This document shows positions 4,692-34,436 of a DNA stretch of 64,000 bases, one piece after another. A model generated the notes under the pieces. The model was not told the DNA's origin and searched no databases. It saw only the letters and a list, made by a program, of their open reading frames with translations. The DNA is taken from positions 959 to 64,958 of the forward strand of contig JAIPGN010000004.1 of NCBI GenBank assembly GCA_021735685.1. The letters are read 5' to 3'. Positions within the stretch are counted from its first letter, which is position 1. Each line of letters begins with the position of its first letter. The stretch is from Patescibacteria group bacterium. GTDB lineage: Bacteria > Patescibacteriota > Patescibacteriia > UBA2591 > UBA6264. The translations under genes were made by a program, and so were the position numbers.

Positions 4692-4736
4692 TTAGAAAAG
4701 GTCGTTTCTAATTAAATTCTTAGATTATTATTTTAT

Positions 4737-12507: not shown

Positions 12508-13302
12508 ATGAAAAAACCAAAGATTATTACAATTTGTAATCGTAAAGGAGGTACTGGCAAGACTAGTGTGGCCATTAACTTGGCCGCTTATTTATCTCGT
12601 CTAGGGCACAAGGTTTTATTAATTGATTTAGATCCTCAGTCTAATGCTACTTCGGGCTTAGGCGTTGACAATCGACGTTCTGGTATTTACGAAGTTTTGA
12701 GTGGAGATGCCTCTTTTCAAGAGATAATAATGGCTGCTCGAGGTAATCTTTGGCTAGCCCCAGCCAGCGAAAATTTAGCTGGAGCAGAAGTAGAGATTGT
12801 GGGACGGGAGAATCGGGAATCAATTTTAAGAAAATCTATTAATTCTTTTATTGAAAAACAAGAAATAGATATTGATTTTATTTTAATTGACACCGCTCCT
12901 TCTTTAAGTTTGATTACTATCAACAGCTTGGTGGCCGCTGATCAGATTTTGATTCCCGTGCAAACTGAGTATTTTGCTTTAGAGGGTTTAACTCAGCTTT
13001 GCAAAACTATTGATTTGGTTAAAGAGGGCCTTCAGCCAAATTTAAGTATTTTAGGGGCAGTTTTAACTATGTATGATGGTCGCAATAAACTTTCTTCAGA
13101 AATTTGGCAAGAGCTGTATCGTCATTTTCCTTATTACATCTTTCGTACTGTAATTCCTCGTAATGTTCGTTTGGCTGAAGCTCCTAGTTATGGGCAAAGC
13201 GTTTTAGAATACGCTCCTCGTTCCCGAGGAGCTAAAGCCTTTCATCGTTTAGCTAAAGAATTTTTAGCCCTTAGTCTTAATAATAAGATTAATCATGCCT
13301 AA
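12508..13302 (+). CDS. parA: Chromosome-partitioning ATPase ParA/Soj
   Basis: Deviant Walker A KGGTGKTS, then LIDLDPQSNATSGLG; 264 aa. Confidence 0.9.
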   Translation: MKKPKIITICNRKGGTGKTSVAINLAAYLSRLGHKVLLIDLDPQSNATSGLGVDNRRSGIYEVLSGDASFQEIIMAARGNLWLAPASENLAGAEVEIVGRENRESILRKSINSFIEKQEIDIDFILIDTAPSLSLITINSLVAADQILIPVQTEYFALEGLTQLCKTIDLVKEGLQPNLSILGAVLTMYDGRNKLSSEIWQELYRHFPYYIFRTVIPRNVRLAEAPSYGQSVLEYAPRSRGAKAFHRLAKEFLALSLNNKINHA

Positions 13303-13729
13303 GTATTTAATTTCCTTTTTTGTTTTAGTTTTGATTCTTGTTGTTTTTTGGTTTGGCGTGGTCAAAAAAGAAAAAGAAATAGTTCGTTTTCAGAATTATT
13401 ATTTTGAAGTAGAGTTGGCTCAAAATTATTGGCAAAGGGCGAAGGGACTGATGTTTAAAAAAGATATGGAAGAAAATCAAGGAATGCTTTTTGTTTTTCC
13501 CAAATCCGGATTATATAATTTTTGGATGAAAAATGTAAAATTTCCCTTGGATCTTATTTGGATTGATCAAGAGAAAAAAATTGTGGATTTAAAATTACAA
13601 CAACAACCTTGTTTAAGTAATCCTTGCTCAGCTATTAAACCGAAGGCTAAGGCACGATATGTTTTAGAGCTCAAAGGAGGAATGGCTAGTAAGACGGGGA
13701 TGACCGTTGGTTCTCAGCTAGAATTTTAA
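13295..13729 (+). CDS. DUF192-family protein with an N-terminal TM segment
   Basis: MFKKDMEENQGMLFVFPKSGLYNFWMKNVKFPLDLIWID matches the DUF192 (COG1430) core. The start ATGCCTAA overlaps the parA stop. Confidence 0.6.
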   Translation: MPKYLISFFVLVLILVVFWFGVVKKEKEIVRFQNYYFEVELAQNYWQRAKGLMFKKDMEENQGMLFVFPKSGLYNFWMKNVKFPLDLIWIDQEKKIVDLKLQQQPCLSNPCSAIKPKAKARYVLELKGGMASKTGMTVGSQLEF

Positions 13730-13793
13730 AATTAGCTTTTAGGTAAAAAAATGTTATAATAAAAGATAGAAAAAAATAAATTAAAATAAATTT

Positions 13794-14648
13794 ATGTCTT
13801 TAGGTAGGGGATTAGAGTCTTTAATTCCAGTTTCAAGTATTAAGAAAGTTAGCGATCAGGGTTTAAGTCAAACCAAAGAAGAGGTTTGTGATGTTTTGGT
13901 TAATCAAATTGAGGCCAATCCTGATCAACCCCGTAAAAGCTTTCAAAGAACTAATATGGAAGAGTTGATTAATTCCATTCAAGCGCATGGCATTATCCAG
14001 CCTTTAATTCTAAGTAAAAAAGAAGGAGGTAAGTATGAAATTATTGCCGGAGAAAGACGTTGGCGCTCTGCTAAAATTTTAAATTTAAAAACAGTTCCAG
14101 CTTTAATTCGTCCCATTGATTATAATAAAAAATTGGAAATATCTTTGATTGAAAACATTCAAAGAAAAGACCTTAATGCTATGGAAAAGGCAAAGGCTTA
14201 TCAAAGATTAATGGATGAGTTTAATTTAACTCAAGAAAAAATATCGGAAAGGTTGGGCTTGGCTCGAGCTACAGTAGCCAATGCCTTGCGTTTATTAAGA
14301 TTGCCTCAAATAATTCAAGAAGCCATTGAACAGGAAAAGATTAGTGAGGGTCATGCTAAAATTCTTTGTTCTTTTGATAGCGCAGAGAAGCAAAAAGCTT
14401 TTCTTAAGAGAATATTGGGATTAGGTTTAACGGTGCGCGAAACTGATCAGATGGCTAAAGCAAAGAAATTTAAAAAAAAGAAGATAATGCTCAATCCAGA
14501 ATTAGAGGAGAGAGAAAAGAAGTTGTCGCAATTTTTAGGCACTAAAGTTAAAATAAAAAAGAGTCAATCTAAAATTAAAGTATTAATAGAGGTTTACAAA
14601 TTAGAGGATTTAGATATAATAATTAAAAAGATAAAAGCAGATAATTAA
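13794..14648 (+). CDS. parB: Chromosome-partitioning protein ParB/Spo0J
   Basis: GLGRGLESLIP start, ParB box IIAGERRWRSAKI, and an HTH region. Confidence 0.9.
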   Translation: MSLGRGLESLIPVSSIKKVSDQGLSQTKEEVCDVLVNQIEANPDQPRKSFQRTNMEELINSIQAHGIIQPLILSKKEGGKYEIIAGERRWRSAKILNLKTVPALIRPIDYNKKLEISLIENIQRKDLNAMEKAKAYQRLMDEFNLTQEKISERLGLARATVANALRLLRLPQIIQEAIEQEKISEGHAKILCSFDSAEKQKAFLKRILGLGLTVRETDQMAKAKKFKKKKIMLNPELEEREKKLSQFLGTKVKIKKSQSKIKVLIEVYKLEDLDIIIKKIKADN

Positions 14649-14671
14649 GTTAAATTTGAGATTTATAGTTT

Positions 14672-14890
14672 ATGGCTATTGAAGTTAAAAGAAAACAAAA
14701 AGAAGCGTTAAATGTTTTTTTGCGTCGTTTTTCAGAAAGAGTAAAGCGTAGCGGAATTATTAATGATTTTAAAAAGTCAAAATTTTATCTTAAGCCTAAA
14801 AGCAAAAATTTAAAAAGAAAAAGCGCTTTAGAAAGAAAAAAGAAATCTGAAAAAATGAAATTTTTGAAAAAGGTGGGTAAAGCGAAATAA
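14672..14890 (+). CDS. rpsU: 30S ribosomal protein S21
   Basis: 72-aa basic protein; N-terminus MAIEVKRKQKEALNVFLRRFSERVKRSGI resembles the S21 N-terminal signature; lysine-rich tail. Confidence 0.7.
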   Translation: MAIEVKRKQKEALNVFLRRFSERVKRSGIINDFKKSKFYLKPKSKNLKRKSALERKKKSEKMKFLKKVGKAK

Positions 14891-14907
14891 AAAATTTATC
14901 AAAAAAT

Positions 14908-17900
14908 ATGTTTTTTTCAAAAAATAAAATCAGTTTAATTGTTTTTCTGATTATTTTGCCTATATTTTTTTTATTTATCCTTGCTCCGCTTTCAGCGCAA
15001 GATTTGGGTTCAGGAATAGTAGAAGAAGCGGGAAGTAGTGCCGGTTTAGGAGAAGGTAGTTTGCCAATTGTTTTAGGAAAAATTTTTAAAATAGTTTTAA
15101 GTGTTTTGGGTTTAGTTGCTTTAATTCTTGCTATTGTTGCTGGAGTTCAATGGATGACCTCTGGTGGTAATTCTGAAAAAATAAAAAAAGCGAAAGCCCT
15201 TTTGTCAGCAGCCTTAATTGGTCTGCTGATTATTATTTTAGCTTATGCTTTGGTTAGTTTTATAGTTAATAAATTAACTGGAGTTAGCGGGGGGGGAGGA
15301 GGATGTACGCCAGGCTCGTGTTGTGCAGATGGATTGCGATGCGATGAGAATGGTCAATGCACAATTGCTGATCTTGCCTGTAGCACCACTTTCCCTTCTG
15401 AGAATTTTCTTTTGTCTCGTGGTGAAGCTAATTTTGACGCAAACAATCAAGTTTATTTATGTAGTAATATTAGGGCTGTTTTTAATCATAATATAAAATC
15501 TAATACAGTTAGTGCTGCCCTTAATGCCGATGCTTTGAAGGTGGTGGACACAGATGATAATGACACAGTAGAAGGAGAATGGCAGGTGGCGGGTAAATTT
15601 ATTACTTTTACACCTGATGAATTTTGGGAAGAAAACACGAGTTATGAAATGGTGATTCCTTTAACGATTAGTGACAGCAATAATAAATATTTAAGTGGTT
15701 GTTCGGCCGGTTTTTTGCCTAATGGCAATTGCGCGAGTTTAGCTTCGCAAGTAAAATGGTCTTTCTTGACTAATGATCAGCCTGATGATATTTCTCCCTT
15801 TATTAAGAATTCTTATCCAGTTAAAGATTTAACTACTCCTGATCGTAATGTTTCGCGAGCGCCAGTTTTAGAAATTATTTTTAATGAAAATATAGATTAC
15901 ACGACTATTATTGACACAAATCATGTAGATTATGACGCAGATGATCAAAGCACTTGGCATCCAATAGCAGGTAATTTTCAATTATGCAAAATAGCGAATC
16001 AGAGTACTGAATGTGTTGTTGGGAATGAATACAATAACGATAATCTCAAAGTTTCTTTAACTTCACAGGGTTTTCGCATTTCTTTACTGAATGCTCAATG
16101 GCTAGAGGCTTTTGGGTGGTACGAAATTAAAGTGGATGGGATTGAAGATATGTGTGGCAATGTTATGGAACAATCCGAGGCTTGGACTTTCCAGGCCAAT
16201 GATAGTGTGCCCGGAGTGCAAGAGTGGTGGCCGCAAGGCAATAATGTTTGTCCAGACGCGCCCATTGGTTTACGTTTCGGAACCAGTATGTATGAACAGG
16301 AGGTGTCGGTGGAAGTAATTAATACTGTAACCAATGCTATTGAATTTGCGGGATCCATAAAACCTTCTAATTTTCCCGCTGGTGGTGATTACAGGTCAAA
16401 TTTAACCACTGGTAATGGTTCTTTGCTAGTAATGGATGATAATGATGATGAAATTTCTAATCAATTTAAAATATTTCAATTAGAGTTAAATTCGAATCTA
16501 ACTAATGATAGCGAATACACAATTGAGATTAATACCGACTTAATAATTGATGTTGATAACAATACCTTAGGTAAAGATTGGAGTTTTGAGGTTACTAATC
16601 TGCAAGATTGTGCTTGCGCTCCCATTATTTATCAAACTCTCCCAGCTCAGGGACCGCGAGGCTCTTGCGTCACTGTCACTGGCTATTGTTTTAATGGGAC
16701 GCTAGAGAGACCAGCAACAATTAATGGTTTTTGGTTTGACGATGGTGATAATCCAGATGGAGAAATATCTGCTGAAATCATGAGCTCAACTTCCAATTCT
16801 TTAACCACTGTAATTCCGGCGGATTTTGGAGAGCCAATTGATGATGTTCCTGATGAATTAAGCGAAAGAATTAAAATAGTTTATGAAGATAATGGCGAGG
16901 AAGTAAATATTCCTTCGGCTAATCAATTTACTGTTATTAGCAATCAGTTGGCTCAAGGTCCTTGTATCTGGCGCTTGGCTCCAAACCAAGGTAAGGTAAG
17001 TACTAATTTTGAAATAAAAGGCATTCGTTTAGGTTCAGAAGAAGGAAATAATTATGTAGGGATGAATTCTTGGGCTGATCATTTAAATATTGAGGGGGCT
17101 TGGACCAATGAAGAAATTGATCAAGTAGTGGTTCCAGCTTTCAGCACGGCTGGAGAAAGGGATGTGAAGGTAGCTGTTTTTAATGAGGCAGAGGGTAATT
17201 ATTTATTCAGCAATCCCGCTCCTTTTGATGTTATCTTTGATCAACCCGAGGTTAGAGAATTTGGTTGCAACCCGCCCCCTAATTATTCCTCTCCCAGTCC
17301 TTACAAAAATACGCAAGACGCTTGCACGGGTATTGATTTAATGGTGGAATTTACTAAAAACATGAAAGCATATGGAGCTAATGGTGTTTTGAATGTCGCT
17401 AATTACACCATTCGAAATTGTGGAAGCGAAGAGAATTATAACCCGGCAGATTGTAGCAGTATTTATTATTCTCCCACTAATGCTAATTTTTATGACAGTT
17501 CTCAAAATATAGTTCAACTTTCTTTAGCTTCTTCTTTATCCACTAATACTTGGTATCAGGTCAGCATTCAAGGCAATGTTCGCTCTCAAGAAGAAGTGGC
17601 TATGGGAGAAGATTATATTTGGCATTTCAAAACTCGAGACAATGATCTTTGTCCGGTAGCTCAAATAGATTTAACTCCTCAAAATAGTATGATTACTGGT
17701 TGTTCGGGGAGCCAACAATATACAGCTCAGCCCGTGGCCAGTAATTGTAATTTTTTAACGGCGAGTAATTATACTTATTCTTGGCTTTCTTCTCAAACAG
17801 AAGTAGCTACTGTTGGATCTGGCCAAAATTATCAAAATACAGCTCAAGCCATTGGTGGTGGTTATGCTTGGATTAAAGTCACAGAAGATGATTCTCAAAA

Positions 17901-20900: not shown

Positions 20901-22245
20901 TAATAGTGCTGGTCTTTTAGAGAATTTAGAGGCGCAAGCCTTTGACGATCAGGGTAATGAAATTTTTGGAGTAAATGGTTATGATTGGGATTGGGGTTGG
21001 CAATCATCTCAACAAACTGTTGTAAATGTTAACTCGGTTGCCGGAGAACCAGAAAAAGCGGAAATTATTTCAGGTAGACAAGAGGGTATCTCTGAAATTG
21101 TGGCTACAGCTCAGTTGAATGTAGGAGGAGAGCCTACTAACACTTTAGTTGATGATCAAATTTCAGCACGAGTCTCTATTTGTGAATATCCATGGGTTTA
21201 TTTTGATGGAGGGGGGGGCGAAGGAACCAATTTTAATTTATTTTATTGTCGCGATCAAGAGCCTCTCTTGCCAAAATTACTTTATAAGGGAGGAGAAGTG
21301 AGTCCTAGTGGCTGTGGAAATGGTATTTTGCAACCCCCTGAGGCTTGTGATCTTTATGTTGGGGTTCCGTCTCATGCTACTTGTTCTTTTAATTGTTTGA
21401 GCTGGGAATGTAACGCGGGTTATTACAAAGAAAACAATATATGTCTTCCTAATATTCCCTTAGCTCCCTCTAATCTAGAAGTTGAAGTTGATAGTGATTT
21501 TCCCGGAAGTCGACTTAATTTAACTTGGAATGATAATTCTGTTAACGAAGAATTTTTTAAGATTGAAAGAAAGTCTAGGGCTTCTAATTGGCAGTTAGTG
21601 GATGAAGTAGGAGCCAATATTACTTCTTATGTCGATTCTGATTTAGATCCAGCCACTAAATATTATTATCGAGTTCGAGCCGGAAATACTTCAGGTAATT
21701 CCTCCTATACTACGGAAAGTTGGGCAATTACCCTTTGTTTAAATAATCAATGTTATTTTAACCAAGCTTGCTATAACTCTGAGCAATGTCAACCTAATTC
21801 TACCCAAATGTGCTTAAATGGCGAATGGATAAATTCTTGCGGAGATGGAATTTTAAATTGTAATGAAATTTGCGATGGGGTTATTGGAAGTATTCCCGGA
21901 AATAATACTCATTGTCAAAATGATTGTTTAAACTGGATTTGTGATGTTGGCTATGGTGATTGTGACGGAAATTCTTCTAACGGATGTGAAATTAATTTAT
22001 TAAATAACAATAGTCATTGCGGAGAATGTAATCAACCTTGTGGCGCTAATCAAAGTTGTGAAAACGGCATTTGTGTTTGTGAAAACAATTATGGTGATTG
22101 TGACGGAAATTCTTCTAACGGATGTGAAATTAATTTATTAAATAACAATAGTCATTGCGGAGAATGTAATCATCAATGTTCTGATACTGATGAATGTGAA
22201 TTTGGGCATTGTGTCGAAATAGCCCCCGCCCCCCCAACTGATTAA
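14908..22245 (+). CDS. Giant (2445-aa) cell-surface protein. The N-terminal double-TM region resembles a type IV secretion pilin (VirB2/TrbC-like). It continues into Ig-like regions, Myxococcus-type CGDG...CD cysteine-rich repeats, one FN3 domain, and C-terminal GDCDGN..NGCE..HCGEC repeats.
   Basis: Single long ORF. The N-terminus VQWMTSGGNSEKIKKAKALLSAALIGLLIIILAYALVSFIV matches the ...YMTSAGNPEKVSKAKK..IGLIIIL.AY motif of T4SS pilins (from memory). FN3: LNLTWNDNS...YYYRVRAGNTSG. Cys repeats: CGNGILQPPEACD, CGDGILNCNEICDG. Confidence 0.85.
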   Translation: MFFSKNKISLIVFLIILPIFFLFILAPLSAQDLGSGIVEEAGSSAGLGEGSLPIVLGKIFKIVLSVLGLVALILAIVAGVQWMTSGGNSEKIKKAKALLSAALIGLLIIILAYALVSFIVNKLTGVSGGGGGCTPGSCCADGLRCDENGQCTIADLACSTTFPSENFLLSRGEANFDANNQVYLCSNIRAVFNHNIKSNTVSAALNADALKVVDTDDNDTVEGEWQVAGKFITFTPDEFWEENTSYEMVIPLTISDSNNKYLSGCSAGFLPNGNCASLASQVKWSFLTNDQPDDISPFIKNSYPVKDLTTPDRNVSRAPVLEIIFNENIDYTTIIDTNHVDYDADDQSTWHPIAGNFQLCKIANQSTECVVGNEYNNDNLKVSLTSQGFRISLLNAQWLEAFGWYEIKVDGIEDMCGNVMEQSEAWTFQANDSVPGVQEWWPQGNNVCPDAPIGLRFGTSMYEQEVSVEVINTVTNAIEFAGSIKPSNFPAGGDYRSNLTTGNGSLLVMDDNDDEISNQFKIFQLELNSNLTNDSEYTIEINTDLIIDVDNNTLGKDWSFEVTNLQDCACAPIIYQTLPAQGPRGSCVTVTGYCFNGTLERPATINGFWFDDGDNPDGEISAEIMSSTSNSLTTVIPADFGEPIDDVPDELSERIKIVYEDNGEEVNIPSANQFTVISNQLAQGPCIWRLAPNQGKVSTNFEIKGIRLGSEEGNNYVGMNSWADHLNIEGAWTNEEIDQVVVPAFSTAGERDVKVAVFNEAEGNYLFSNPAPFDVIFDQPEVREFGCNPPPNYSSPSPYKNTQDACTGIDLMVEFTKNMKAYGANGVLNVANYTIRNCGSEENYNPADCSSIYYSPTNANFYDSSQNIVQLSLASSLSTNTWYQVSIQGNVRSQEEVAMGEDYIWHFKTRDNDLCPVAQIDLTPQNSMITGCSGSQQYTAQPVASNCNFLTASNYTYSWLSSQTEVATVGSGQNYQNTAQAIGGGYAWIKVTEDDSQKWTREKLTVNCCSSDQDCYDPDDDSTNRCAGSICDDTYGICTPIINDFSPSAGDLEDWVTINGCWFNNYNQSYSQVSFNEEVASIPFDRCTNSAWQNEQIIAEVPAEQGNPFGKIQVVSAPYGINFEVLSDSNFLEGDSYVGICNLRPDHGPTGLITALTTNDNLAPRVGQDAVHYGNQRAMAYPEPGWSVAFKEIRSQSPTTLPLGEILVKVKQGGLDSNYLSFNVDPTGGQPGDLCIEGCGPLCDLGAQFCENPYFCLQRTSGTCQDCRCCCQISDPESCGTELECLAGQGNCTGTERGLCCGCENDVQCGSAGCGFLDSNRCCYAHPSAVFNACSATDFPQLVGLNASFALSFDQPMDRNRMNNDYIKISKAGLCGNDSGEYDQDQGRCYLEGDIVSVNSENNNSTVFYPDSCRLSTNQEYKLEFIKGENGAGIRSFQGVSATAIGTEACSWDNSLSCANFVIDTATQEQGGFCAIETINVEPRDFIIKGLNNTHNFLALALDEDDSPVCVSGFDWESENQSIAAVQPTLGLGTTARSINYGETFIKASAEGISCSLSGDPYTCTKLKVTPTDLPQVVEQQSCEICDLGGQSPSPWKDSEENCPNAQIVVRFNRFLELTTINVSNILVKEFNPNTQTYEDFDYQSLDKINENSETIIYIDGPLSADKNYQVILKSGLSNEVGGLKDLSGLPLDGNKNNIQDASPLDDYVWEFSTGATNCVLNQVCVNPRQTTQINHPGNQVYYTDTYASNCNYLEASNFNGNYVWALINQQPANPSQEVAEFISSIDDWQSELSSKHLGEADVEVSINSHPQINDNGHLIVTTVPNIESSLPQGNEVCRNSIIQIGFDQVMEDDSLNADNLEVWRKYNSAQTGLNCEGNCDEVPPVGSNYPQNFLASLYYKIKNIFYPQAEAAQFPSEDCWCQWPLSGISSSIDENNKSLARLDAGLLNGEAQYKVVIKSGVESQYGIDLGLNDEWQFTTGELCELTRVEISPRDVYFNSAGLLENLEAQAFDDQGNEIFGVNGYDWDWGWQSSQQTVVNVNSVAGEPEKAEIISGRQEGISEIVATAQLNVGGEPTNTLVDDQISARVSICEYPWVYFDGGGGEGTNFNLFYCRDQEPLLPKLLYKGGEVSPSGCGNGILQPPEACDLYVGVPSHATCSFNCLSWECNAGYYKENNICLPNIPLAPSNLEVEVDSDFPGSRLNLTWNDNSVNEEFFKIERKSRASNWQLVDEVGANITSYVDSDLDPATKYYYRVRAGNTSGNSSYTTESWAITLCLNNQCYFNQACYNSEQCQPNSTQMCLNGEWINSCGDGILNCNEICDGVIGSIPGNNTHCQNDCLNWICDVGYGDCDGNSSNGCEINLLNNNSHCGECNQPCGANQSCENGICVCENNYGDCDGNSSNGCEINLLNNNSHCGECNHQCSDTDECEFGHCVEIAPAPPTD
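21952..22170 (+). repeat. Perfect 81-bp tandem duplication with a 138-bp period (copies at 21952-22032 and 22090-22170), inside the giant gene
   Basis: The identical string TATGGTGATTGTGACGGAAATTCTTCTAACGGATGTGAAATTAATTTATTAAATAACAATAGTCATTGCGGAGAATGTAAT occurs twice. Each copy encodes YGDCDGNSSNGCEINLLNNNSHCGECN. Confidence 0.9.
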
Positions 22246-22281
22246 ACAAAATTTAAGCCTAAGAGATTTTAAAATTAATAA

Positions 22282-25200
22282 ATGTATATTAAGGTACAAA
22301 AAAATATGATTAGCCGAAAAAATATTAAAAATTTGATTTTCCTCGGCTTGCTAACTTTTTTAGCTGGAATTTTTTGGTTTAATTTGCAAACAGATTTAGT
22401 TCATGCTGATCAAGCGGGCTTGGTTAAAGAATTTTTGTTTACTGTTCAGGGATCATCCGGAGATGCTATTGGAGTTAAAATAATGGAAAATCCACAACGA
22501 TTGACTCCTTCAGCTTGGTATCAACAGAATGTTCAAAATCCGGGAAATCCCAGTATTTTTATGGTCGATGGTTATTATGCTTTACGAGAGGGAAGAACTG
22601 TTTATGTGGGAGCAACTAATGTCAGCGGAGTTTCAAATGAAAACATTTCTTCTTATATTTATATTATTTCTTATAACGAAGGAGCTTCTGCGGAAACTGT
22701 TAATATTTTTAATCAATTACTAGAGAAATTTACTTTTAACACTAATCTTACTAACGCTGATCAAAGAGGAGAGATTCAAAGAGATTTGTTTAGAATTTAT
22801 GATTTAGATCAAATTTCTAGTGAACTAGAATCTTACTATGGTCAGCATGGGTCTTACCCTCCTATATCTTCTGGTTCTTATTTGAAGGGGGAGACCTATA
22901 GTGCTTGGCCTTCTTGGCAATATACTTTTGGCCAAGCTTTGGGGAAATCTTTGCCGGTTGATCCTTTAAATCGTTTTTATGGATCTTGTGCTGGTTGTCC
23001 CGATAACCCTCAACAATCCAATTATCAGTGTGATGGGACTTGTTATAATCCTTTAAATAAAGAATTTGCCCATCCCAACAATTCACATGTTTATGGTTAT
23101 TATACGCCAACTGAAAATGATTGTAGTGGGCAAGGATATGAGTTGTCAGCTAATTTTGAATATTATCCTTTTTCGGCCACTCCTCCTTTGCCAGCAGTAA
23201 GATGGTTAGGGGATAATGAAATTCAAATTTCTTTGCCAGATATCCTTGGTAAAAATAATTATATTGTTTCTCAAGGATTGGGGGAATGTGGTGATCAGGT
23301 TTTAAATGCTTGTGAGGAGTGTGAAATTATTGACAGCAATATGGTTCCTTCTGGCAAAACTTGTGCCAGTTTAGGATTGGGCTCTGGGTCCTTGAGTTGT
23401 GTTGATTGTCATTGGGATGGTTGTGGTAAACTAAGTAATGGAGAAAATTGTTCTTTGGATGTTGAGTGTTCTTCTGGCTATTGCAGCCCAGATGGAGTTT
23501 GTTGTAATACAGCTTGTCAAGGTCTTTGTCAGTCTTGTAATCAGTCTGGTCAAGAAGGCACCTGTCTTTTGGTGCCATCTGGAGAGGACCCAGGAGACGT
23601 TTGTTCGGACACAGCTCCTTGTTTAACTGGTAACTGCGATGGCCTTGGAGCTTGTGAGCTAGAATCAAGTGGTACTTCTTGTGGTGATTGTCAGTATTGT
23701 TCAGTAAATGGACAATGCTTGCCAGTTCCTTTTGGAGAAGATTACAATAATCAGTGTTCAGAAGATTCTAGTAATTGTGAGGCTGGCTATTGCGATGGTT
23801 ACGGCTCTTGTACTTACTATCCCGCTGGTTTTATTTGTGGTGATTGTAGATATTGTAGTAGCGCTTACCCACCTGATTGTAATGTTGTCCCCGGAGGCAC
23901 TAATTGGGGTTTTAATTATTATTGTGATAATAATGGTAATTTTGCTTGTTATGTCAATTGGGGAAATTGTGACGGGGATTGGAATACAGGTTGCGGAACT
24001 AATCTTTTGCTTGATCCGGAAAATTGCGGAGAATGTGATAATTCTTGTAGCGATAATCAAACTTGTCAATCAGGAGAATGCGTTTGTTTGCCTGGATATG
24101 CGGATTGCAATGGTGATCCCAGTGATGGCTGTGAAGCTTCTCTAAATAGCACTGATCATTGTGGTTACTGTGGCAACGATTGTCCTTCGGGTTATGACTG
24201 CTTAAATGGATCTTGCTCTCGTCCTGGTTCTTGCGGAGACGGAATTGTTCAGCCTGATTTTGAAGATTGCGATCCTAACGAAGATCCTATTCTTTCTTGG
24301 AGTCCAGGATTAGGACAACACTGCAACGATGTTTGTGAGATTGTGATTGATTTGAATATTTTACAAAACTATCCAGGAACAACTAATGATATTGATTTAC
24401 CGTCCATTGTTAATGAGTATAAAAATGACTCTGAGTTTCAATTAGCAATGAGAGACGTTGTTGTTACGTCTCAATCTTTAAGTTATTTTAACGATGATCC
24501 CGATTTTTTTATTCCTTCGGGAAACAGATTGGAATATTATAATGTCCTGGTTTTTGGTTGGAAAGATTGCAATGGTTCCGAAGATTTAAGCCCAGAGGCA
24601 GCAGCAGCAGTTGACGATTTTATTGACCAAGGTGGTTCTGTTATTTTTGGACATGATACTATTTGGCAAGAAGCTAATTCTGTTTGCGGAGGAACACATA
24701 CTAATTTTAATACTCTAAAGCATCATGCCGGCATTGGAGAGCTTAATAATTTTTCTGGCGTTGATCTTTTTAATAATGTGGGAGCTAATTTTAATTTAGC
24801 TGGGGGAAAACTTTTTACCATTCCTTATGTTTTAGAAGAAGAATTCGATGTTCTTTCTACTCATTTAAGTGGTCAAGTTTTAGATCCAGACACTTGTGAA
24901 GCTCCTGAAGGACTCAAAGTTTGGTATTATGCTAAAATTGATGGTTCTTTGGATTATAATAAACCTTGGGCTAACACTTGCGGAAAAGTGGAGATGATTC
25001 AATTGGGGCACATTACCGGAGAACCAGAGGATATGGAGAAAAAAGCTTTAATTAATATGCTTTATTATGTCGCTACAGCTGGAACTGATGTAGCTAATAA
25101 TCCTTCTGGCGGAGGAGGCGCACTAGGCACTGGCATATTTGGTGATTCTTGTGAGAGTGATGATGATTGCAGTGGCGACTTAAATTTAATTTGTGGCTTA

Positions 25201-25380
25201 GATGATACTTGTGCTTGTGGTGATGATTGGGGGAATTGTAATGGTAATCCTGATGATGGTTGCGAGACAAATTTATTAACTACTTGGTTACATTGTGGGG
25301 CTTGCACAAATCAATGTGACCCTGACGAAGATTGTGTAGATGGAACATGTGAGGGAGGAGGCGGTGGTAACCAATGGTAA
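22282..25380 (+). CDS. Large (1032-aa) secreted Cys-rich protein with CGDG...CD (Myxococcus-type) and xDCNGxPxDGCE..L....HCG.C repeats
   Basis: N-terminal signal/TM. Repeats include NWGNCDGDWNTGCGTNLLLDPENCGECDNSC, GYADCNGDPSDGCEASLNSTDHCGYCGNDC and DWGNCNGNPDDGCETNLLTTWLHCGACTNQC. The repeat type matches the C-terminus of the giant gene. Confidence 0.8.
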   Translation: MYIKVQKNMISRKNIKNLIFLGLLTFLAGIFWFNLQTDLVHADQAGLVKEFLFTVQGSSGDAIGVKIMENPQRLTPSAWYQQNVQNPGNPSIFMVDGYYALREGRTVYVGATNVSGVSNENISSYIYIISYNEGASAETVNIFNQLLEKFTFNTNLTNADQRGEIQRDLFRIYDLDQISSELESYYGQHGSYPPISSGSYLKGETYSAWPSWQYTFGQALGKSLPVDPLNRFYGSCAGCPDNPQQSNYQCDGTCYNPLNKEFAHPNNSHVYGYYTPTENDCSGQGYELSANFEYYPFSATPPLPAVRWLGDNEIQISLPDILGKNNYIVSQGLGECGDQVLNACEECEIIDSNMVPSGKTCASLGLGSGSLSCVDCHWDGCGKLSNGENCSLDVECSSGYCSPDGVCCNTACQGLCQSCNQSGQEGTCLLVPSGEDPGDVCSDTAPCLTGNCDGLGACELESSGTSCGDCQYCSVNGQCLPVPFGEDYNNQCSEDSSNCEAGYCDGYGSCTYYPAGFICGDCRYCSSAYPPDCNVVPGGTNWGFNYYCDNNGNFACYVNWGNCDGDWNTGCGTNLLLDPENCGECDNSCSDNQTCQSGECVCLPGYADCNGDPSDGCEASLNSTDHCGYCGNDCPSGYDCLNGSCSRPGSCGDGIVQPDFEDCDPNEDPILSWSPGLGQHCNDVCEIVIDLNILQNYPGTTNDIDLPSIVNEYKNDSEFQLAMRDVVVTSQSLSYFNDDPDFFIPSGNRLEYYNVLVFGWKDCNGSEDLSPEAAAAVDDFIDQGGSVIFGHDTIWQEANSVCGGTHTNFNTLKHHAGIGELNNFSGVDLFNNVGANFNLAGGKLFTIPYVLEEEFDVLSTHLSGQVLDPDTCEAPEGLKVWYYAKIDGSLDYNKPWANTCGKVEMIQLGHITGEPEDMEKKALINMLYYVATAGTDVANNPSGGGGALGTGIFGDSCESDDDCSGDLNLICGLDDTCACGDDWGNCNGNPDDGCETNLLTTWLHCGACTNQCDPDEDCVDGTCEGGGGGNQW

Positions 25381-25493
25381 AATAATATCATCCAGAAACA
25401 GAACAGGTTGTTCAATTGTTTGTGGTTGTTAATCAAAAAATATGACTAAATTCAAAATTTATCAAAAGAATTAAAAATAATAATTAAAAAAAT

Positions 25494-27446
25494 ATGTTTG
25501 ATGAAATTAAAACCGAGGGAAATCAAGATAAAAAAAATTCTGATCAAGGATTGAATCAGAAATCAGCTCCCTCTTTTAAAGCTCCTTCTTCGTCTCCACA
25601 ACCAGAAGTTAATTCAGGCAATTCCTCGTCTCAAAAATCAAAAGAATTTGAAGTTCCAGAATTAATCAAAAAAGATATTTTGAAGAAAGTTGAAGATAGT
25701 CAAGAAAAAAAAGAATCAGTGTCTCCTCAAGAAGAAAAAATTTACGTAATGCCTGATAAATTTAAACAAAATTCTGGATCAGGTTCAGGAAGAAAGGGCA
25801 AGAAAGGAGTAAAAATTTTTTTAATTATTCTTTTTGTGCTTTTGATTGGCGGAGGCGCTTATTATTATTTTTGGTCGCAACAATACATTGAACCCGAAAT
25901 AATTGCTCCAGAAGAAGAGGTAATTCCTGAAGAAGGTGAAGGAGAAGAAGTGTTGCCAGAAGAAGAGGTAATTCCTGAAGAAGGCGAAGGAGAAGAAGTG
26001 TTGCCAGAAGAAGAGTTAATTCCTGAAGAAGAAACTGAGGAAGAATTTTTTGAAGAAACTAATATAGAAATTGAAGTCAGAGATCAAGAAGAGATGTTAA
26101 TTTCCAAATTTAATTTTCTTTTACCGGAAGGTTCTTTAGACGCAGGATCAATAGTAGAGGCTAGCGGGACCTGGGACCAAGAGGAGGTTGCCCTCGGAGA
26201 TGACCTGTATACAGTTTTGGGAGCGATTTATGAAATTGATTCTGAAGCAGATTTAGTTTTTTTGAAAACCGCTAGTTTAGAAATATTATATAATCAAGAA
26301 TTAGTGGAAGATTTTTGGGAAGATGAAATTACTTTAGGCTATCTTAAGAATGAAACTTGGACCCCCTTACTTAGCACTGTTGATTCAGAAGAAAATGTAG
26401 TAAAAACAGAATTAGACTTCTTGCCAGCTAATACTATTGCTTTGATTGTAGAGAAAGATAAATTGATTCCGGAGATTGAGAAATTACAGATTGCGCCCCA
26501 TATTTCTTCCAGCCTAGATGATGATAATGATGGTCTGACCAACATTGAAGAATCTATTTTTGGTTCAGAGCCTAATAACCCAGATACAGATGCCGATGAA
26601 GTCCCAGACGGGCAAGAAGTTCTTAATTTAACCGATCCTCTCCAGTCTGATAATCAGCTATCTACTTCTGGACTAATAAAGGTTTATATTAACCCTACTT
26701 TTTCTTATAGTCTTTTTTATCCTTCTTCTTGGTTAACGCGGCCCATTCCAGAAACGGACAATCAAGAAGTTTTAATCGTTACTAATACTGGTGAATTTTT
26801 TAGCATTAATGTTGAAAATAATCCTGAAGAATTAAGCCCAACTGATTGGTATTTGCGTCAATCTCCTAATCTTGATTCAGAAACTCTTTTAGAGGTAATG
26901 GTCCATGAACAGCCAGCAGTTTGGAGTGCAGATCGCTTAACGATTTATGTGTCTCGACAAGATAAAATTTATCTTTTGTCTTATTTGTTGGGAACCAGCT
27001 CAGAAGCTAACTTCAAAACTACTTTTCAGATGATGATTAATAGTTTTCAGTTTGTTACTCAACCTCAGGGCAGGGCTAATGGAACTTTAGTTAGTTATCC
27101 TGATCAACCAGAAGTTTACTTAATTGAAAATAACAAGAAGCGAGCTTTCATCTCTGGAGAAATTTTTGAAAAATTGGGATTTAACTGGGAAGATGTTATT
27201 GAGATTCCTTTAGAAGAAGAATATGAAGATGGCCAAGATATTGTTGGATACTTAGACGGAACTTTAATTAAGTATCCCGATCAATCAGAGGTTTACTTGA
27301 TTGAAAATAACAAAAAACGTGTTTTTGTTTCGGGAGAAGTTTTTGAGGGTTTAGGATTTAACTGGGAAGATGTCATTGAGATTCCTCTAGAAGAAGAGTA
27401 TGAAGATGGTCCTCCTATTGAAAGTGCAGGTGGGGGCGTTAATTAG
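25494..27446 (+). CDS. Membrane-anchored (single TM, type-II-like) surface protein. It has an acidic PEEEVIPEEGEGEEVL tandem repeat, a DDDNDGLTN...DTDADEVPDGQE calcium-binding-like motif, and two C-terminal ~60-aa repeats of the DGTLIK...VYLIENNKKR type.
   Basis: TM segment VKIFLIILFVLLIGGGAYYYFW after a low-complexity Ser/Lys-rich N-terminus. DNA tandem repeats are at 25909-26030 and 27079-27411. Confidence 0.7.
   Translation: MFDEIKTEGNQDKKNSDQGLNQKSAPSFKAPSSSPQPEVNSGNSSSQKSKEFEVPELIKKDILKKVEDSQEKKESVSPQEEKIYVMPDKFKQNSGSGSGRKGKKGVKIFLIILFVLLIGGGAYYYFWSQQYIEPEIIAPEEEVIPEEGEGEEVLPEEEVIPEEGEGEEVLPEEELIPEEETEEEFFEETNIEIEVRDQEEMLISKFNFLLPEGSLDAGSIVEASGTWDQEEVALGDDLYTVLGAIYEIDSEADLVFLKTASLEILYNQELVEDFWEDEITLGYLKNETWTPLLSTVDSEENVVKTELDFLPANTIALIVEKDKLIPEIEKLQIAPHISSSLDDDNDGLTNIEESIFGSEPNNPDTDADEVPDGQEVLNLTDPLQSDNQLSTSGLIKVYINPTFSYSLFYPSSWLTRPIPETDNQEVLIVTNTGEFFSINVENNPEELSPTDWYLRQSPNLDSETLLEVMVHEQPAVWSADRLTIYVSRQDKIYLLSYLLGTSSEANFKTTFQMMINSFQFVTQPQGRANGTLVSYPDQPEVYLIENNKKRAFISGEIFEKLGFNWEDVIEIPLEEEYEDGQDIVGYLDGTLIKYPDQSEVYLIENNKKRVFVSGEVFEGLGFNWEDVIEIPLEEEYEDGPPIESAGGGVN
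25909..26030 (+). repeat. 45-bp tandem repeat (about 2.7 copies) encoding PEEEVIPEEGEGEEVL
   Basis: CCAGAAGAAGAGGTAATTCCTGAAGAAGGTGAAGGAGAAGAAGTGTTG is repeated head to tail. Confidence 0.85.
27079..27411 (+). repeat. ~180-bp tandem duplication, roughly 85% identical, encoding two copies of the ~60-aa surface repeat
   Basis: GGAACTTTAGTTAGTTATCCTGATCAACCAGAAGTTTACTTAATTGAAAATAAC... recurs at 27259. Confidence 0.8.
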
Positions 27447-27486: not shown

Positions 27487-28233
27487 ATGAAGAAATTTCT
27501 TCCTATCTTTTTTGTAATTTTATTATTTTATGTTTTGTCTTTTCTTCTTCACGGAGAAAATCTTTTTTTTCTTGTTTTTCGTCCCACCCAAAGGTATCTT
27601 TATGATCATCAGCAAAGCTCGGTAGATGAAAAGAAAATTTGTGAAGATTTGAAAACAGAAAATTTAAAATTAAAGTTTCTTCGTTCGGAAAATGAAATTT
27701 TAAGAGAACATCTCGATTTTTTGACTTCCTCTCAAGATAAATTTATTTTAGCTAATGTTTTAGGTCGCCAACAAGAATCAGAGCTTAATTGGATTATTAT
27801 CAACCAAGGCAGGAAAAAGGGATTAACTCCGGGCTTGGCTGTAGTTGACCAAAAGGGGTCTTTAATTGGAACCATAATTGAAGTTAAAGATTATGTTTCT
27901 TATGTTCGGCCTTTAATTAATTTACACTCTCTAGTGGCTGCTGATGTGATTAGCTTTAATTCTCAGAAAGAAAAAAGTCGTATTACATCTGGGATTATTC
28001 AAGGAGAGTACAATTTAATCTTAAAGATGAAAAATGTCCCACTGAGCAAAGAAGTAAAAATAGGGGATTCGGTGATAACTTCTGGACTAGAAAAAAAGAT
28101 TAGAAGAGGACTTCTTATTGGTGAAATTTTAGAAATAAAAAAGACTCCCAATGATATTTTTCAAGAATTAATAATTGATCCCTTAGGAGATCAGAACCCT
28201 CGAATTGTTTCAGTTTTGCTATTAGCTGATTAA
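27487..28233 (+). CDS. mreC: Rod-shape-determining protein MreC
   Basis: N-terminal TM, coiled coil, then GLTPGLAVVDQKGSLIGTIIEV...YVRPLINLHSLVAADV, typical of the MreC beta-domain. Directly followed by mreD and PBP2. Confidence 0.7.
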   Translation: MKKFLPIFFVILLFYVLSFLLHGENLFFLVFRPTQRYLYDHQQSSVDEKKICEDLKTENLKLKFLRSENEILREHLDFLTSSQDKFILANVLGRQQESELNWIIINQGRKKGLTPGLAVVDQKGSLIGTIIEVKDYVSYVRPLINLHSLVAADVISFNSQKEKSRITSGIIQGEYNLILKMKNVPLSKEVKIGDSVITSGLEKKIRRGLLIGEILEIKKTPNDIFQELIIDPLGDQNPRIVSVLLLAD

Positions 28234-28247
28234 AAAATTATTCTGCT

Positions 28248-28760
28248 ATGAGTAACAACAAAAATATTTTTTCTTTATTTAAAATTGTCGCTTTTGTTTT
28301 TTTAATTATTTTCGTTGTAATTATTTCTGTTTCTTGGCCCCATTTTCCCTTGTCCCTTTCCTTGGTTTTTGTTCTTTTGTTGCTTTGTTTTCTTAAAAAT
28401 TGGAAAACAGGAGTTTGGTTGACAATTGTTTTTGGTGGATTTTTTCTAGATCTATATTCTATCTTTCCCCCTGGGTTTTTTCTTTTAAGCTTAGGTTTTT
28501 TTTATTTGGTTATTAAAAAAATTTCTCGACGTTTTAATGTTAGTTCAGGCAGCGGTTTTTTCTTTTTAATTTTGGGTAGCGCCCTGATTTACAAAATTAT
28601 AATTTTAGCCCTATCTTCAATTTTTTATTTTTTGAAACTTTCTAATCAATTAATCGCTATTAACTATTTTTATTTTTTAGATGTATTTTGGTTTATGATT
28701 GTTAATAGTTTTTTTGTTTTTTTAATTTTAGCGACTTTTAAAGTTTGGTCTCAAAAATAA
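28248..28760 (+). CDS. mreD: Rod-shape-determining protein MreD (putative)
   Basis: 170-aa polytopic membrane protein sitting between mreC and mrdA. Confidence 0.45.
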   Translation: MSNNKNIFSLFKIVAFVFLIIFVVIISVSWPHFPLSLSLVFVLLLLCFLKNWKTGVWLTIVFGGFFLDLYSIFPPGFFLLSLGFFYLVIKKISRRFNVSSGSGFFFLILGSALIYKIIILALSSIFYFLKLSNQLIAINYFYFLDVFWFMIVNSFFVFLILATFKVWSQK

Positions 28761-28770
28761 TTATTTAAAA

Positions 28771-34422: not shown

Positions 34423-34436
34423 TTTAAAAAAATTTT

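Follow-up and report, generated by a model that had tools for sequence, protein, structure and literature searches.

The two larger of three adjacent genes in a Patescibacteria (CPR) genome, here called g1 and g2, encode two halves of one giant surface architecture that forms a single open reading frame (ORF) in most relatives examined, and the third, g3, encodes a partner of a different kind. The source is a metagenome-assembled genome of an uncultured, ultra-small bacterium, of which a stretch of 64,000 nucleotides (the window) was analysed. The original prediction described three consecutive large cysteine-rich surface proteins. The three genes are co-oriented as described, with products of 2445, 1032 and 650 amino acids and gaps of 36 bp (g1-g2) and 113 bp (g2-g3), and they extend over 14908-27446, that is 12,539 bp or 19.6% of the window, which agrees with the roughly 12.5 kb and 20% first given. 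The picture of three parallel cysteine-rich proteins is nevertheless wrong, as g3 contains no cysteine at all. Cysteine is enriched in the first two, at 4.5% (g1) and 7.2% (g2) compared with a level of 0.94% for 51 other window ORFs.

Hydropathy predicts that g1 and g2 are almost entirely extracellular, together with about 520 residues of g3, and the domain types found (Big_5, fn3, TSP3 and PsbP-like) are extracellular as well. N-terminal anchors or signals, which had been attributed to all three proteins, are present in g1 (a leader and two transmembrane helices) and in g2 (one hydrophobic segment, residues 15-36), but the transmembrane helix of g3 sits later (Table 1). Homology searches found no homologue with an assigned function for g1, g2 or g3, whose GenBank labels are domain-derived names alone; the searches did not reveal them to be ordinary, well-characterised S-layer or cell-wall proteins, and their description as a cell-surface apparatus with no assigned function is fair. 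That the locus also serves host contact is something we infer. Tentatively, and at somewhat less than an even chance, the locus is read as a conserved, vertically inherited cell-surface fibre or coat of a Parcubacteria-type Patescibacterium, consisting of a stalk, a head and a wall-side partner.

Table 1. Features of the locus and its flanking genes, with coordinates in the window
Feature	Coordinates	Strand	Details
Promoter-like site TTTACA-16-TATAAT	14593..14620	+	11/12, consensus match only; inside end of parB, upstream of rpsU
rpsU (ribosomal protein S21)	14672..14890	+	TIGR00030 E 8.9e-6, just under cutoff; 17 bp 5' of g1
g1 (2445 aa)	14908..22245	+	MCF7907098.1, 'Ig-like domain-containing protein'; membrane-anchored, Ig-rich, cysteine-rich extracellular giant
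g1 VirB2-like T4SS_pilin domain (residues 53-119)	15064..15264	+	Two TM helices with basic loop between, preceded by hydrophobic leader 2-33 (hydropathy)
g1 top-scoring Big_5 Ig-like domain	15448..15696	+	PF13205, E 1.3e-34 for whole protein
g1 very cysteine-dense module (residues ~1225-1320)	18580..18867	+	~23 Cys; 14 Cys within 1201-1300
g1 fn3-type domain (residues 2186-2268)	21463..21711	+	PF00041 and PF25059, both sub-threshold; PDB fn3 chains E 9e-4
g1 C-terminal tandem repeat DCDGN...GCE.NLL...HCGEC	21952..22200	+	138-bp (46-aa) unit, 1.8 copies, 88% matches (Tandem Repeats Finder)
g2 (1032 aa)	22282..25380	+	MCF7907099.1, 'DUF5057 domain-containing protein'; separately exported distal part of giant
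g2N (g2 residues 41-335, 295 aa)	22402..23286	+	Unnamed domain family
g2 cysteine-rich repeat region (residues 336-670)	23287..24291	+	~45-aa modules followed by a pair of DCDGN repeats and a CGDG motif
g2 DUF5057-matching domain (residues 671-960)	24292..25161	+	PF16480, 33.5 bits, cutoff 27.9
g2 terminal DCDGN-type repeat (residues 968-1030)	25183..25371	+	Motif search
g3 (650 aa)	25494..27446	+	MCF7907100.1, 'thrombospondin type 3 repeat-containing protein'; single-pass, cysteine-free
g3 single TM helix (residues 104-127)	25803..25874	+	Hydropathy; cytoplasmic tail of ~103 aa before
g3 acidic 16-aa (48-bp) tandem repeat PEEEVIPEEGEGEEVL	25908..26031	+	2.6 copies, 97% matches (Tandem Repeats Finder); just outside membrane
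g3 predicted beta-sandwich (residues 189-320)	26058..26453	+	AF2 pLDDT mostly 75-90
g3 TSP3-type calcium-binding motifs (residues 338-378: DDDNDGLT..EE and NNPDTDADEVPDGQE)	26505..26627	+	PF18884 E 0.0046, sub-threshold
g3 PsbP-fold domain (residues 395-521)	26676..27056	+	PF18933 E 6.4e-6, 26.7 bits, cutoff 27
g3 C-terminal tandem repeats	27081..27409	+	Two of 59 aa (177-bp), Tandem Repeats Finder
mreC, putative mreD, PBP2-type transpeptidase	27487..30645	+	27487-28233, 28248-28760 and 28771-30645; 10-40 bp apart, co-oriented

A giant divided between two genes

g1, whose full-length orthologues are 54-82% identical, is read as the stalk of a surface structure. Its anchor scores 29.2 bits against T4SS_pilin (PF18895; cutoff 26.6; profile positions 6-71 of 71) and also matches the pilin-like (conjugal-transfer) model NF045849 below threshold. 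Windowed scans placed more Big_5 matches near residues 516-561, 790-909, 1594-1693 and 1822-1860, a weak, sub-threshold TIG match lies near 1040-1115, and self-BLAST revealed no near-identical tandem Ig copies. The cysteine-dense module has no Pfam match and is kept in relatives, with tblastn matches to residues 1167-1403 in four related loci. The copies of the C-terminal 138-bp repeat are identical over the first 83 nt, their differences being grouped at unit positions 83-104, without adenine bias.

g2 is read as a head followed by cysteine-rich modules. The g2N family comprises about 1,740 representatives (50%-identity clusters) at E<=1e-3 and its AF2 model is confident (pLDDT 87.7, pTM 0.87); it has no Pfam match at E<=10 and no PDB match by sequence, and Foldseek searches of PDB and BFVD gave nothing below E 0.03. 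Its first half bears a faint likeness to the PsbP-like region of g3 (BLAST E 0.001) and to mycobacterial LpqN (6e5d, prob 0.44). g2N has two kinds of placement. It directly follows a signal or anchor segment, a hydrophobic N-terminal segment being found in 103 of 112 Met-starting proteins with N-terminal g2N, or it closes VirB2-anchored Big_5 giants at their C-terminus, a VirB2-like N-terminal anchor being found in 47 of the 64 retrieved proteins that carry g2N C-terminally or internally. Since its invariant residues are mostly aromatic or Asp/Asn, a binding domain fits better than an enzyme; weighing against a binding head, neither the PDB sequence search nor Foldseek (PDB/BFVD) recognised a ligand-binding fold in this domain. 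Further along, residues 336-670 have no Pfam match, and residues 671-960 align with DUF5057 (PF16480) only at its last 48 positions (331-378 of 378) and show faint ThuA and ABC_transp_aux similarity, their sequence suggesting a putative glutamine-amidotransferase-like fold.

Repeats common to the two proteins were confirmed: the DCDGN type occurs at residues 2351 and 2397 of g1 and 562, 608 and 985 of g2, and CG[DN]G..E.CD at 2136 and 2311 of g1 and 651 of g2. Their assignment to the Myxococcus-type cysteine-rich repeat did not hold, as no HMM scored above threshold. The likeness to these repeats (TIGR02232/DUF4215; NF041328) lies in the core CGDG(I/V)x4-6ExCD and the DCDGN...GCE...CG.C pattern, whereas NF041328 (MXAN_6577-like), the only cysteine-repeat family matching, scores no more than 18-31 bits where the cutoff is 100 (g2 336-670 scores 31), and TIGR02232 and DUF4215 give no match at all.

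In seven related loci, representing six distinct sequences, g1-like sequence to about residue 2115-2130 and g2 sequence from about residue 33-47 onward are joined in a single reading frame (1880-3050 aa from stop to stop, in several cases truncated by the contig edge); the giant is thus split in the window. The split is shared by the window, two further loci and an 80%-identical one, and in one of these, L001, the DUF5057-like module is carried by the giant and not by g2. A giant of this kind is common in this group of bacteria.

The cysteine-free partner

Full-length homologues of g3 number about 45, at 38-82% identity. The cytoplasmic tail is of low complexity and ends in a conserved PELxKK...E.IYVMP.KFK motif. 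Just outside the membrane, the acidic tandem repeat that had been predicted was recovered by Tandem Repeats Finder, and this region differs in length among homologues; the predicted beta-sandwich that comes next has no named match. The DxDxDG-like motif was also borne out, in that D342, D344 and D346 are invariant across 33 sequences and G347 is kept in at least 90%; N362, P363, D364, D366, D372 and G373 of the TSP3 motifs are invariant in the 33 sequences as well.

Residues 395-521 share the fold of PsbP/Mog1-type proteins (PsbP_2; PsbP 2xb3; LpqN 6e5d), with a Foldseek match to cyanobacterial PsbP 2xb3 at E 4e-4, prob 1.00 and TM(target) 0.52. g3 differs from these proteins in having no photosystem context, in combining a single pass with TSP3 motifs and 59-aa repeats, and in a Pfam score just below threshold. 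The tandem surface repeat expected at the C-terminus is present, but its unit is 59 rather than 65 aa. One copy occurs in the closest relative, and the repeat is also found in two ORFs of the window for exported proteins, 35803-37167 (-) and 27-1079 (+); no named family was found for it.

Genomic setting and conservation

Upstream of g1 lie parA (12508-13302), DUF192 (13295-13729), parB (13794-14648) and the S21 gene, and the order parA-DUF192-parB-rpsU is as originally described for the window. Among relatives only rpsU is kept: S21 stands upstream of the giant in five related loci and is the sole upstream neighbour staying linked; on the downstream side it is cell-shape or division genes that are conserved, and parA and parB fall outside the conserved set. 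Directly 3' of g3, mreC and mreD are found in 17 of 17 loci (about 15 distinct sequences), these being the fetched loci with g3 at least 44% identical and sufficient downstream sequence, and pbp2 follows wherever the contig extends so far; the mreD assignment is based on weak TIGR03426 similarity and gene position. All ten of these loci with at least 5 kb upstream contain g1-like and g2N sequence.

Distant relatives show the order rpsU, giant, TSP3/PsbP partner too, but next to ftsA-ftsZ, where the window has mreC-mreD-pbp2. In those relatives, with a giant 27-32% identical, S21, YqeY, a giant with g2N, a TSP3 protein and a PsbP-like g3 relative are followed by YbeY, DagK, FtsA and FtsZ. Compared with the closest relative, identity is 80-82% for g1, g2 and g3 and 84-95% for housekeeping genes nearby, a difference typical of exposed proteins but short of hypervariability.

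The promoter-like site in the end of parB is a possible candidate start of an rpsU-g1-g2-g3-mreCD-pbp2 transcript, and no terminator-like site was found in the intergenic gaps between g1 and pbp2. Spacing and consensus scans make co-transcription of g1-g3 with rpsU and mreCD-pbp2 probable, in which case the structure would be made constitutively during envelope growth.

A proposed surface fibre and competing explanations

For the fibre or coat, g1 would be exported and held by its N-terminal VirB2-like two-helix hairpin, with about 2,300 residues projecting outward, in which Big_5 and fn3 domains, and perhaps the weak sub-threshold TIG, would be stiffened by cysteine-rich modules. g2 would supply the same architecture as a separate Sec-exported protein beginning with the g2N head, and its cysteine-rich modules after g2N, of the type at the g1 C-terminus, could dock it onto g1. 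At the membrane/wall interface, g3, with its calcium-binding TSP3 motifs, PsbP fold and two 59-aa repeats, may act as partner or organiser. From this arrangement we infer possible ligand binding and attachment to hosts or particles; cultivated Saccharibacteria need adhesins and VirB2-like pilins for epibiotic growth (PMC10633639; 10.1101/2025.01.22.634366). Against this reading, no oxidising system, as needed for extracellular disulfides, was identified within the window, and conservation this deep, syntenic and housekeeping-like is more characteristic of structural parts of the envelope than of host-specific adhesins.

With giant Ig-like adhesins (Bap/BAP, the RTX-type MpAFP/LapA class and SiiE), the locus shares huge extracellular size, many Ig-like domains, calcium-binding elements and a presumed outward reach (PMC4083281, PMC4647330). 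It differs from them in the VirB2-like hairpin anchor of g1 and in Ig domains that are not near-identical tandem copies, and dense cysteine modules, an unnamed head domain and a two-gene split are features of this locus. No sequence homology to the Bap/BAP, MpAFP/LapA-class or SiiE adhesins was found, Pfam scans detected no RTX/T1SS or autotransporter domain, and no LPXTG signal is visible on reading the C-termini of g1 and g2.

The conservation just mentioned, with the giant kept directly behind rpsU in a housekeeping-like neighbourhood across deep lineages, would also suit an S-layer-like coat built from g1 by itself or from g1 and g2 together, as an anchored stalk with an Ig-like canopy tiling the cell, with g3 as a calcium-dependent organiser. 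The moderate divergence of g1-g3, the bead-on-a-string Ig-like chain of g1 and the calcium-type motifs of g3 are consistent with this, and Ig-array and calcium-dependent S-layers exist (PMC10120038, PMC13635256, PMC5425405). Two-component and Ig-array S-layers (Sulfolobus SlaA/SlaB, Deinococcus HPI, Geobacillus SbsC) likewise share an anchored stalk with an outer part, Ig-like chains and a conserved genomic position (PMC10903991, PMC10120038, PMC13635256). Such a coat is nonetheless unlikely. The locus has no homology to these systems, is rich in cysteine and is variable in module order. A cysteine content of 4.5-7% is unusual among S-layer proteins, and so is a size of 270 kDa. SLH, CWB2 and other S-layer families gave no match, and because modules shift from one of the two proteins g1 and g2 to the other and homologues differ in domain content, a fibre fits better than a lattice requiring fixed contacts.

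Rather improbable is a role in wall growth or division, in which g3, and possibly g1 and g2, would be envelope scaffolds working with MreC-MreD-PBP2, or elsewhere FtsA-FtsZ, and positioning or regulating peptidoglycan synthesis. The unvarying place of g3 immediately 5' of mreC-mreD in its clade, with pbp2 next where the contig is long enough, argues for it, as do the distance of three genes between the cluster of distant relatives and ftsA-ftsZ, the single pass and conserved short cytoplasmic motif of g3, its weak Foldseek match to periplasmic EccB1 (3x3n; E 0.017, prob 0.91), and the 59-aa repeat on two other exported proteins of the window. However, the downstream partner differs by lineage (mreCD-pbp2 or ybeY-dagK-ftsAZ), which leaves no one morphogenetic partner common to all; sequence comparison did not tie the repeat to EccB or to any family of wall-binding proteins; and adjacency in small, streamlined genomes may mirror inheritance and not function. 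To our knowledge, known elongasomes and divisomes have no counterpart of a 2,400-aa Ig-rich extracellular protein.

Little credence is given to g1 as a VirB2-type pilin-adhesin fusion, assembled as a pilus tip or minor subunit by a type IV secretion system (T4SS) encoded elsewhere. VirB2-like pilins occur widely across Patescibacteria, one cultivated species of which requires them, and a PrgB-type adhesin was looked for in Patescibacteria systems and not found (10.1101/2025.01.22.634366; PMC12857230); were the fusion real, g1 would supply this missing adhesin. The first 120 residues of g1 do share the leader and two-helix hairpin of Patescibacteria VirB2/TrbC-type pilins, with a T4SS_pilin match above gathering threshold over a nearly full profile and the sub-threshold conjugal-transfer model. 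The described pilins, however, are small and arrayed beside virB4 (10.1101/2025.01.22.634366), whereas g1 has about 2,300 additional residues, which would be hard to fit into a VirB2 helical filament, and is linked to rpsU and cell-shape or division genes. No T4SS gene (VirB4, VirB6, VirD4 etc.) occurs among the Pfam-scanned ORFs of the window, which included all large ones and the whole locus neighbourhood, or in the related neighbourhoods examined.

Finally, DCDGN and cysteine-rich modules occur in many unrelated multi-domain proteins and could be promiscuous, but chance adjacency of three unrelated exported proteins is very improbable, being contradicted by at least seven loci in which g1 and g2 are fused into a single ORF and by the order of giant and TSP3/PsbP partner, which persists down to 27% identity.

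Gene order, composition and repeats

Three predicted surface-protein genes, g1, g2 and g3, follow one another in a window of 33% G+C whose genes are dense and mostly co-oriented. The original prediction placed three large open reading frames here downstream of parA, DUF192 and parB; the frames were recovered where claimed, separated by gaps of 36 bp (g1-g2) and 113 bp (g2-g3), and ParA, DUF192 and ParB all give clear Pfam matches. Downstream of g3 lie genes for MreC, probably MreD, and a transpeptidase of the PBP2 type.

The prediction called all three proteins cysteine-rich, which fits g1 (4.5% cysteine) and g2 (7.2%), against 0.94% across 51 other ORFs of the window, and is wrong for g3, as it contains no cysteine. 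The cysteine modules said to be shared are indeed common to the first two proteins: g1 has two copies and g2 three of the DCDGN...GCE.NL...CG.C module (the DCDGN repeat), and the CG[DN]G...E.CD motif is found in both. Self-BLAST gave nothing useful on the internal repeats of g1, and Tandem Repeats Finder, used in its place, detected a 138-bp repeat ending g1, a 48-bp acidic repeat within g3 and a 177-bp repeat ending g3. The acidic tandem repeat expected in g3 is therefore present, whereas the C-terminal unit measures 59 aa and not 65.

The GenBank names of the exact matches are automatic and domain-derived, and among the homologues of g1-g3 retrieved in homology searches there is none whose structure has been solved or whose function has been assigned. 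In a 90%-identity protein collection, the representative of the g3 cluster is a 45-aa protein called 'solute carrier family 25 phosphate transporter', a clustering artefact that arises from the acidic low-complexity stretch of g3 and masked its exact match in the homology search.

Coordinates of the surface-protein genes and of other features in the window and in related loci
Sequence	Position	Strand	Feature	Remark
Window	27-1079	+	Exported ORF	Bears 59-aa repeats
Window	2516-3280	+	254-aa N-anchored protein	CGDG-type cysteine-rich tail (CVDVCGDGVCQEMVCLGSGCPCAETVATCPQDCS)
Window	3412-5315		Thioredoxin, thioredoxin-reductase-like flavoprotein, rubrerythrin	Just downstream of the 254-aa protein
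Window	12051-12416		dagK	Upstream of parA
Window	14672-14890		S21 (rpsU), 72 aa	Between ParB and g1; TIGR00030, E 8.9e-6
Window	14908-22245	+	g1, 2445 aa	MCF7907098.1, 'Ig-like domain-containing protein'
Window	22282-25380	+	g2, 1032 aa	MCF7907099.1, 'DUF5057 domain-containing protein'
Window	25494-27446	+	g3, 650 aa	MCF7907100.1, 'thrombospondin type 3 repeat-containing protein'
Window	32027-32752		thyX	Absent from L026 at that place
Window	33502-35702	+	IF-2B-family protein	Adjoins RuBisCO large-chain homologue
Window	35803-37167	-	Exported ORF	Bears 59-aa repeats
Window	~36000-44500		Sign switch	GC skew and gene orientation
Window	42370-46751		Two M23 peptidases, FtsQ-like POTRA protein	Flank the sign switch
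L003	231-9362		Giant homologue, 3043 aa	Same sequence in L011
L026	5578-6705		375-aa gene	Separates g1 and g2
L026	10001-11779		g3	One 59-aa repeat

Anchor, stalk and head: g1 and g2

The N-terminus of g1 matches the VirB2-like family T4SS_pilin (PF18895) at residues 53-119; the score is 29.2 bits (cutoff 26.6), and the match covers profile positions 6-71 of 71. Hydropathy marks a putative leader (residues 2-33) and two transmembrane helices (51-85 and 92-126) joined by a basic loop, TSGGNSEKIKKAKA, and on this topology the other ~2,300 residues are predicted to lie outside the cell. At least six Big_5 Ig-like domains (PF13205, E 1.3e-34, 119.5 bits over three stretches, with more copies in windowed scans) lie in this extracellular part, together with a domain of fn3 type, a weak match to TIG, a module very dense in cysteine (residues ~1225-1320) and a C-terminal DCDGN tandem. 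Full-length orthologues are 54-82% identical to g1, and more distant giants that combine T4SS_pilin with Big_5 are 26-36% identical.

The pilin match brings in a link of g1-g3 to a type IV secretion system as a lesser rival explanation. However, g1 is unlike T4SS_pilin members in size and setting, being a protein of 2445 aa and not a small one encoded with T4SS genes, and this context was rejected because VirB4, VirB6, VirD4 and other T4SS genes are absent from the Pfam-scanned ORFs of the window and from the related loci examined. A sortase-anchored (LPXTG) adhesin was dismissed on the C-termini, ...HCVEIAPAPPTD in g1 and ...CEGGGGGNQW in g2, neither with a C-terminal hydrophobic segment. Pfam and NCBIfam scans of g1-g3 detected no S-layer or wall-anchoring modules (SLH, CWB2 and others), and PDB sequences gave no match to known S-layer proteins.

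BLAST of g2 against its own matches delimits a hydrophobic stretch at the N-terminus, the ~295-aa domain g2N (residues 41-335), cysteine-rich repeats, a DUF5057-tail region and a final DCDGN repeat. The GenBank name of g2 rests on a fragment of 48 positions, since DUF5057 (PF16480) matches residues 746-792 (33.5 bits, cutoff 27.9) through profile positions 331-378 of 378 only, and the same region is faintly ThuA-like. The assignment of the cysteine modules to a "Myxococcus-type" repeat is borne out as far as a short core motif is shared, and fails as a family assignment: NF041328 (MXAN_6577-like) has a cutoff of 100 bits and reaches 18.0 on g1 and 31.1 on g2, TIGR02232 has no match at E<=1, and Pfam, DUF4215 included, has none on the cysteine region at E<=10.

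The g2N domain is common to many Patescibacteria proteins. Its profile retrieves 1,740 proteins at E<=1e-3, 1,346 of them at E<=1e-30, from 1.84 billion cluster representatives, making it an unnamed domain of about 1,700 clusters at 50% identity. An AlphaFold2 model from 18 sequences is confident (pLDDT 87.7, pTM 0.87), and the domain is unmatched in Pfam, where there is no hit even at E 10, and by Foldseek in PDB and BFVD, where the best E is 0.03 and the query-normalised TM is at most 0.22 for all listed matches; the family profile likewise found no PDB sequence. A type IV pilin or T2SS pseudopilin-like fold for its second half, an idea that came from the motifs RD..R..DL...L..Y....G.YP and LP.DP.N, was abandoned, as pilins are missing from the PDB matches listed by Foldseek, and both Foldseek against BFVD and the family profile against PDB sequences gave nothing. 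The invariant residues are mostly aromatic together with Asp/Asn and include no obvious catalytic set, a pattern that would favour binding rather than catalysis.

Related loci were scored as split or fused by stop-to-stop ORF analysis. In L003/L011, L009, L012, L017, L018, L019 and L020, sequence resembling g1 up to residue ~2115-2130 continues in a single ORF into g2 from residue ~33-47; these fused ORFs span 1880-3050 aa, several of them ending at a contig edge. The split form, with a separate hydrophobic N-terminus on g2, is found in the window and also in L001, L015 and L026, so that the split is real and no assembly error. The g2N domain is N-terminal in 119 of 183 retrieved proteins, of which 112 start with Met and 103 of these have a preceding hydrophobic segment; in the other 64 it is C-terminal or internal in giants, and a VirB2-like anchor is present in 47 of these 64. 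ORF fusion and g2N placement together identify g1 and g2 as halves of one recurrent architecture, which, read from sequence, is predicted to comprise an anchor, an Ig-rich stalk, g2N and cysteine-rich modules. A single protein can thus be divided between neighbouring genes annotated 'Ig-like' and 'DUF5057'. The DUF5057-like module of L001 is part of the 4921-aa giant and not of g2, and the giant homologue in L003 has PT-HINT and intein-splicing matches that indicate a Hint-type module inside it.

The conserved partner g3

About 45 full-length homologues of g3, 38-82% identical, align well. From the N-terminus, the protein begins with a variable low-complexity cytoplasmic tail, ending in the conserved motif PELxKK...E.IYVMP.KFK, and one transmembrane helix, beyond which follow an acidic linker whose length varies, a domain predicted to be a beta-sandwich, Asp motifs of the TSP3 type, a PsbP-fold domain and one or two 59-aa repeats. 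The bacterial TSP3 repeat (PF18884) falls below its cutoff on g3 (17.2 bits against 25, E 0.0046); its matches are present on proteins neighbouring or homologous to g3, and the residues of DxDxDG..E and NNPDxDxD..DG do not vary across 33 homologues. PsbP-like (PF18933) is borderline at 26.7 bits against 27, and the Foldseek match to PsbP 2xb3 (prob 1.00, E 4e-4, TM(target) 0.52) supports a PsbP fold in the modelled domain, with PsbP function not implied. NCBIfam matches to MapZ and CglD (E 0.03 and 0.001, cutoffs 700 and 400 bits) were set aside as low-complexity or TSP3 noise.

No named family emerged for the 59-aa repeat from Pfam, NCBIfam or PDB sequences, with the repeat profile and two other repeat-bearing window proteins as queries. 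The whole g3 model matches EccB1 3x3n (E 0.017, prob 0.91), but with an rmsd of 19.5, and the repeat profile did not find EccB among PDB sequences; the modelled likeness is a lead only, too weak for naming the repeat. The repeat type also occurs on two exported ORFs of the window; in one, an unnamed N-terminal domain precedes four copies, and the other has at least four.

Conserved address, variation and proposed structure

Window proteins were compared with 22 related loci by tBLASTn. The mreC-mreD pair directly follows g3 in 17 of 17 loci (~15 distinct sequences) that have g3 at >=44% identity and enough downstream sequence, pbp2 comes next wherever the contig extends that far, and g1-like plus g2N sequence is present in all ten loci whose upstream sequence reaches 5 kb or more. 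Linkage of parA-parB to the cluster was rejected, since no related locus shows it; S21 occurs in L018 and L019. Three far more distant genomes, L023-L025, whose giants are 27-32% identical, encode S21, YqeY, a giant with g2N, a TSP3 protein and a PsbP-like relative of g3, followed by YbeY, DagK, FtsA and FtsZ. Close and distant orders together define a conserved core of rpsU, giant and TSP3/PsbP partner, which adjoins either elongation or division genes. In the distant genomes the giant and its partners lie between rpsU-yqeY and ybeY-dagK-ftsA-ftsZ; the position of dagK upstream of parA in the window therefore indicates rearrangement around the cluster. A consensus scan marks a promoter-like site before rpsU and no terminator-like site between g1 and pbp2.

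Against the closest relative, L026, identity is 80-82% for g1, g2 and g3, 80-95% for ten neighbouring genes and 84-95% for the nine of these ten with recognisable function or a full-length match. L026 has an additional gene between g1 and g2, further DCDGN-like sequence after g1, one 59-aa repeat in g3 where the window has two, and no thyX at the corresponding place, so the locus varies at strain or species level. Targeting of the tandem repeats by a diversity-generating retroelement was rejected: mismatches between copies lack adenine bias and hence give no sign of such a mechanism, and no reverse transcriptase is found among the annotated ORFs.

The locus is real and uncharacterised, with two genes that are one split giant and a conserved partner, in a genomic position that is itself conserved; by type it belongs with giant Ig-like surface proteins, here as a variant. 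The best-supported reading of these sequences is a conserved three-part surface structure, in which g1 would be a membrane-rooted Ig-rich stalk, g2 the distal part bearing the g2N head, separately made in the window, and g3 a wall-side partner, calcium-binding by prediction. The function of this structure is one that we infer. Read from sequence, the structure may be either a sparse adhesive fibre or a dense coat; the coat gains weight from the housekeeping-like genomic address. A role of g1-g3 in wall morphogenesis, to which the neighbouring mreC, mreD and pbp2 would point, is a lesser rival to the surface structure.

A more far-reaching reading is improbable, in which rpsU, the VirB2-anchored giant with its g2N head and the TSP3/PsbP partner would be the core of a lineage-wide, Parcubacteria-type envelope organelle, a membrane-rooted fibre with g2N as the primary host contact, assembly coupled to the machinery of wall growth or of division, and a VirB2-like hairpin repurposed from T4SS pilins as adhesin anchor. 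Such coupling would account for the placement beside mreCD-pbp2 or ftsAZ, and the hairpin, if the reading is true, would be a previously undescribed way to anchor an adhesin.

A very large part of the diversity of bacteria falls within the Patescibacteria. To our knowledge, every cultivated member lives attached to other microbes, and we know of almost no surface or contact molecules apart from type IV pili; the giant family is a concrete candidate for one. Its defined architecture, conserved address and conserved partner make it searchable in any Parcubacteria genome. VirB2-like pilins are common in the group, in which a PrgB-type adhesin was not found (10.1101/2025.01.22.634366), and a cultivated Saccharibacterium cannot grow epibiotically without adhesins and the T4SS (PMC10633639; PMC12857230); none of these sources describes giant VirB2-anchored proteins. 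A VirB2-like pilin module that anchors huge extracellular proteins in the membrane would be a new use of this module, one not found in the open-access and preprint literature searched on Patescibacteria type IV secretion.

Elsewhere in the window, the switch in GC skew and gene orientation means that genes converge there. The pairing of an IF-2B-family protein with RuBisCO occurs in CPR nucleotide-salvage pathways. Among the related loci, many GenBank titles for L005, L008-L016 and L022 read 'uncultured Gammaproteobacteria bacterium', yet the gene content fits Patescibacteria, and the titles are probably a placeholder or mislabel from a bulk MAG submission.
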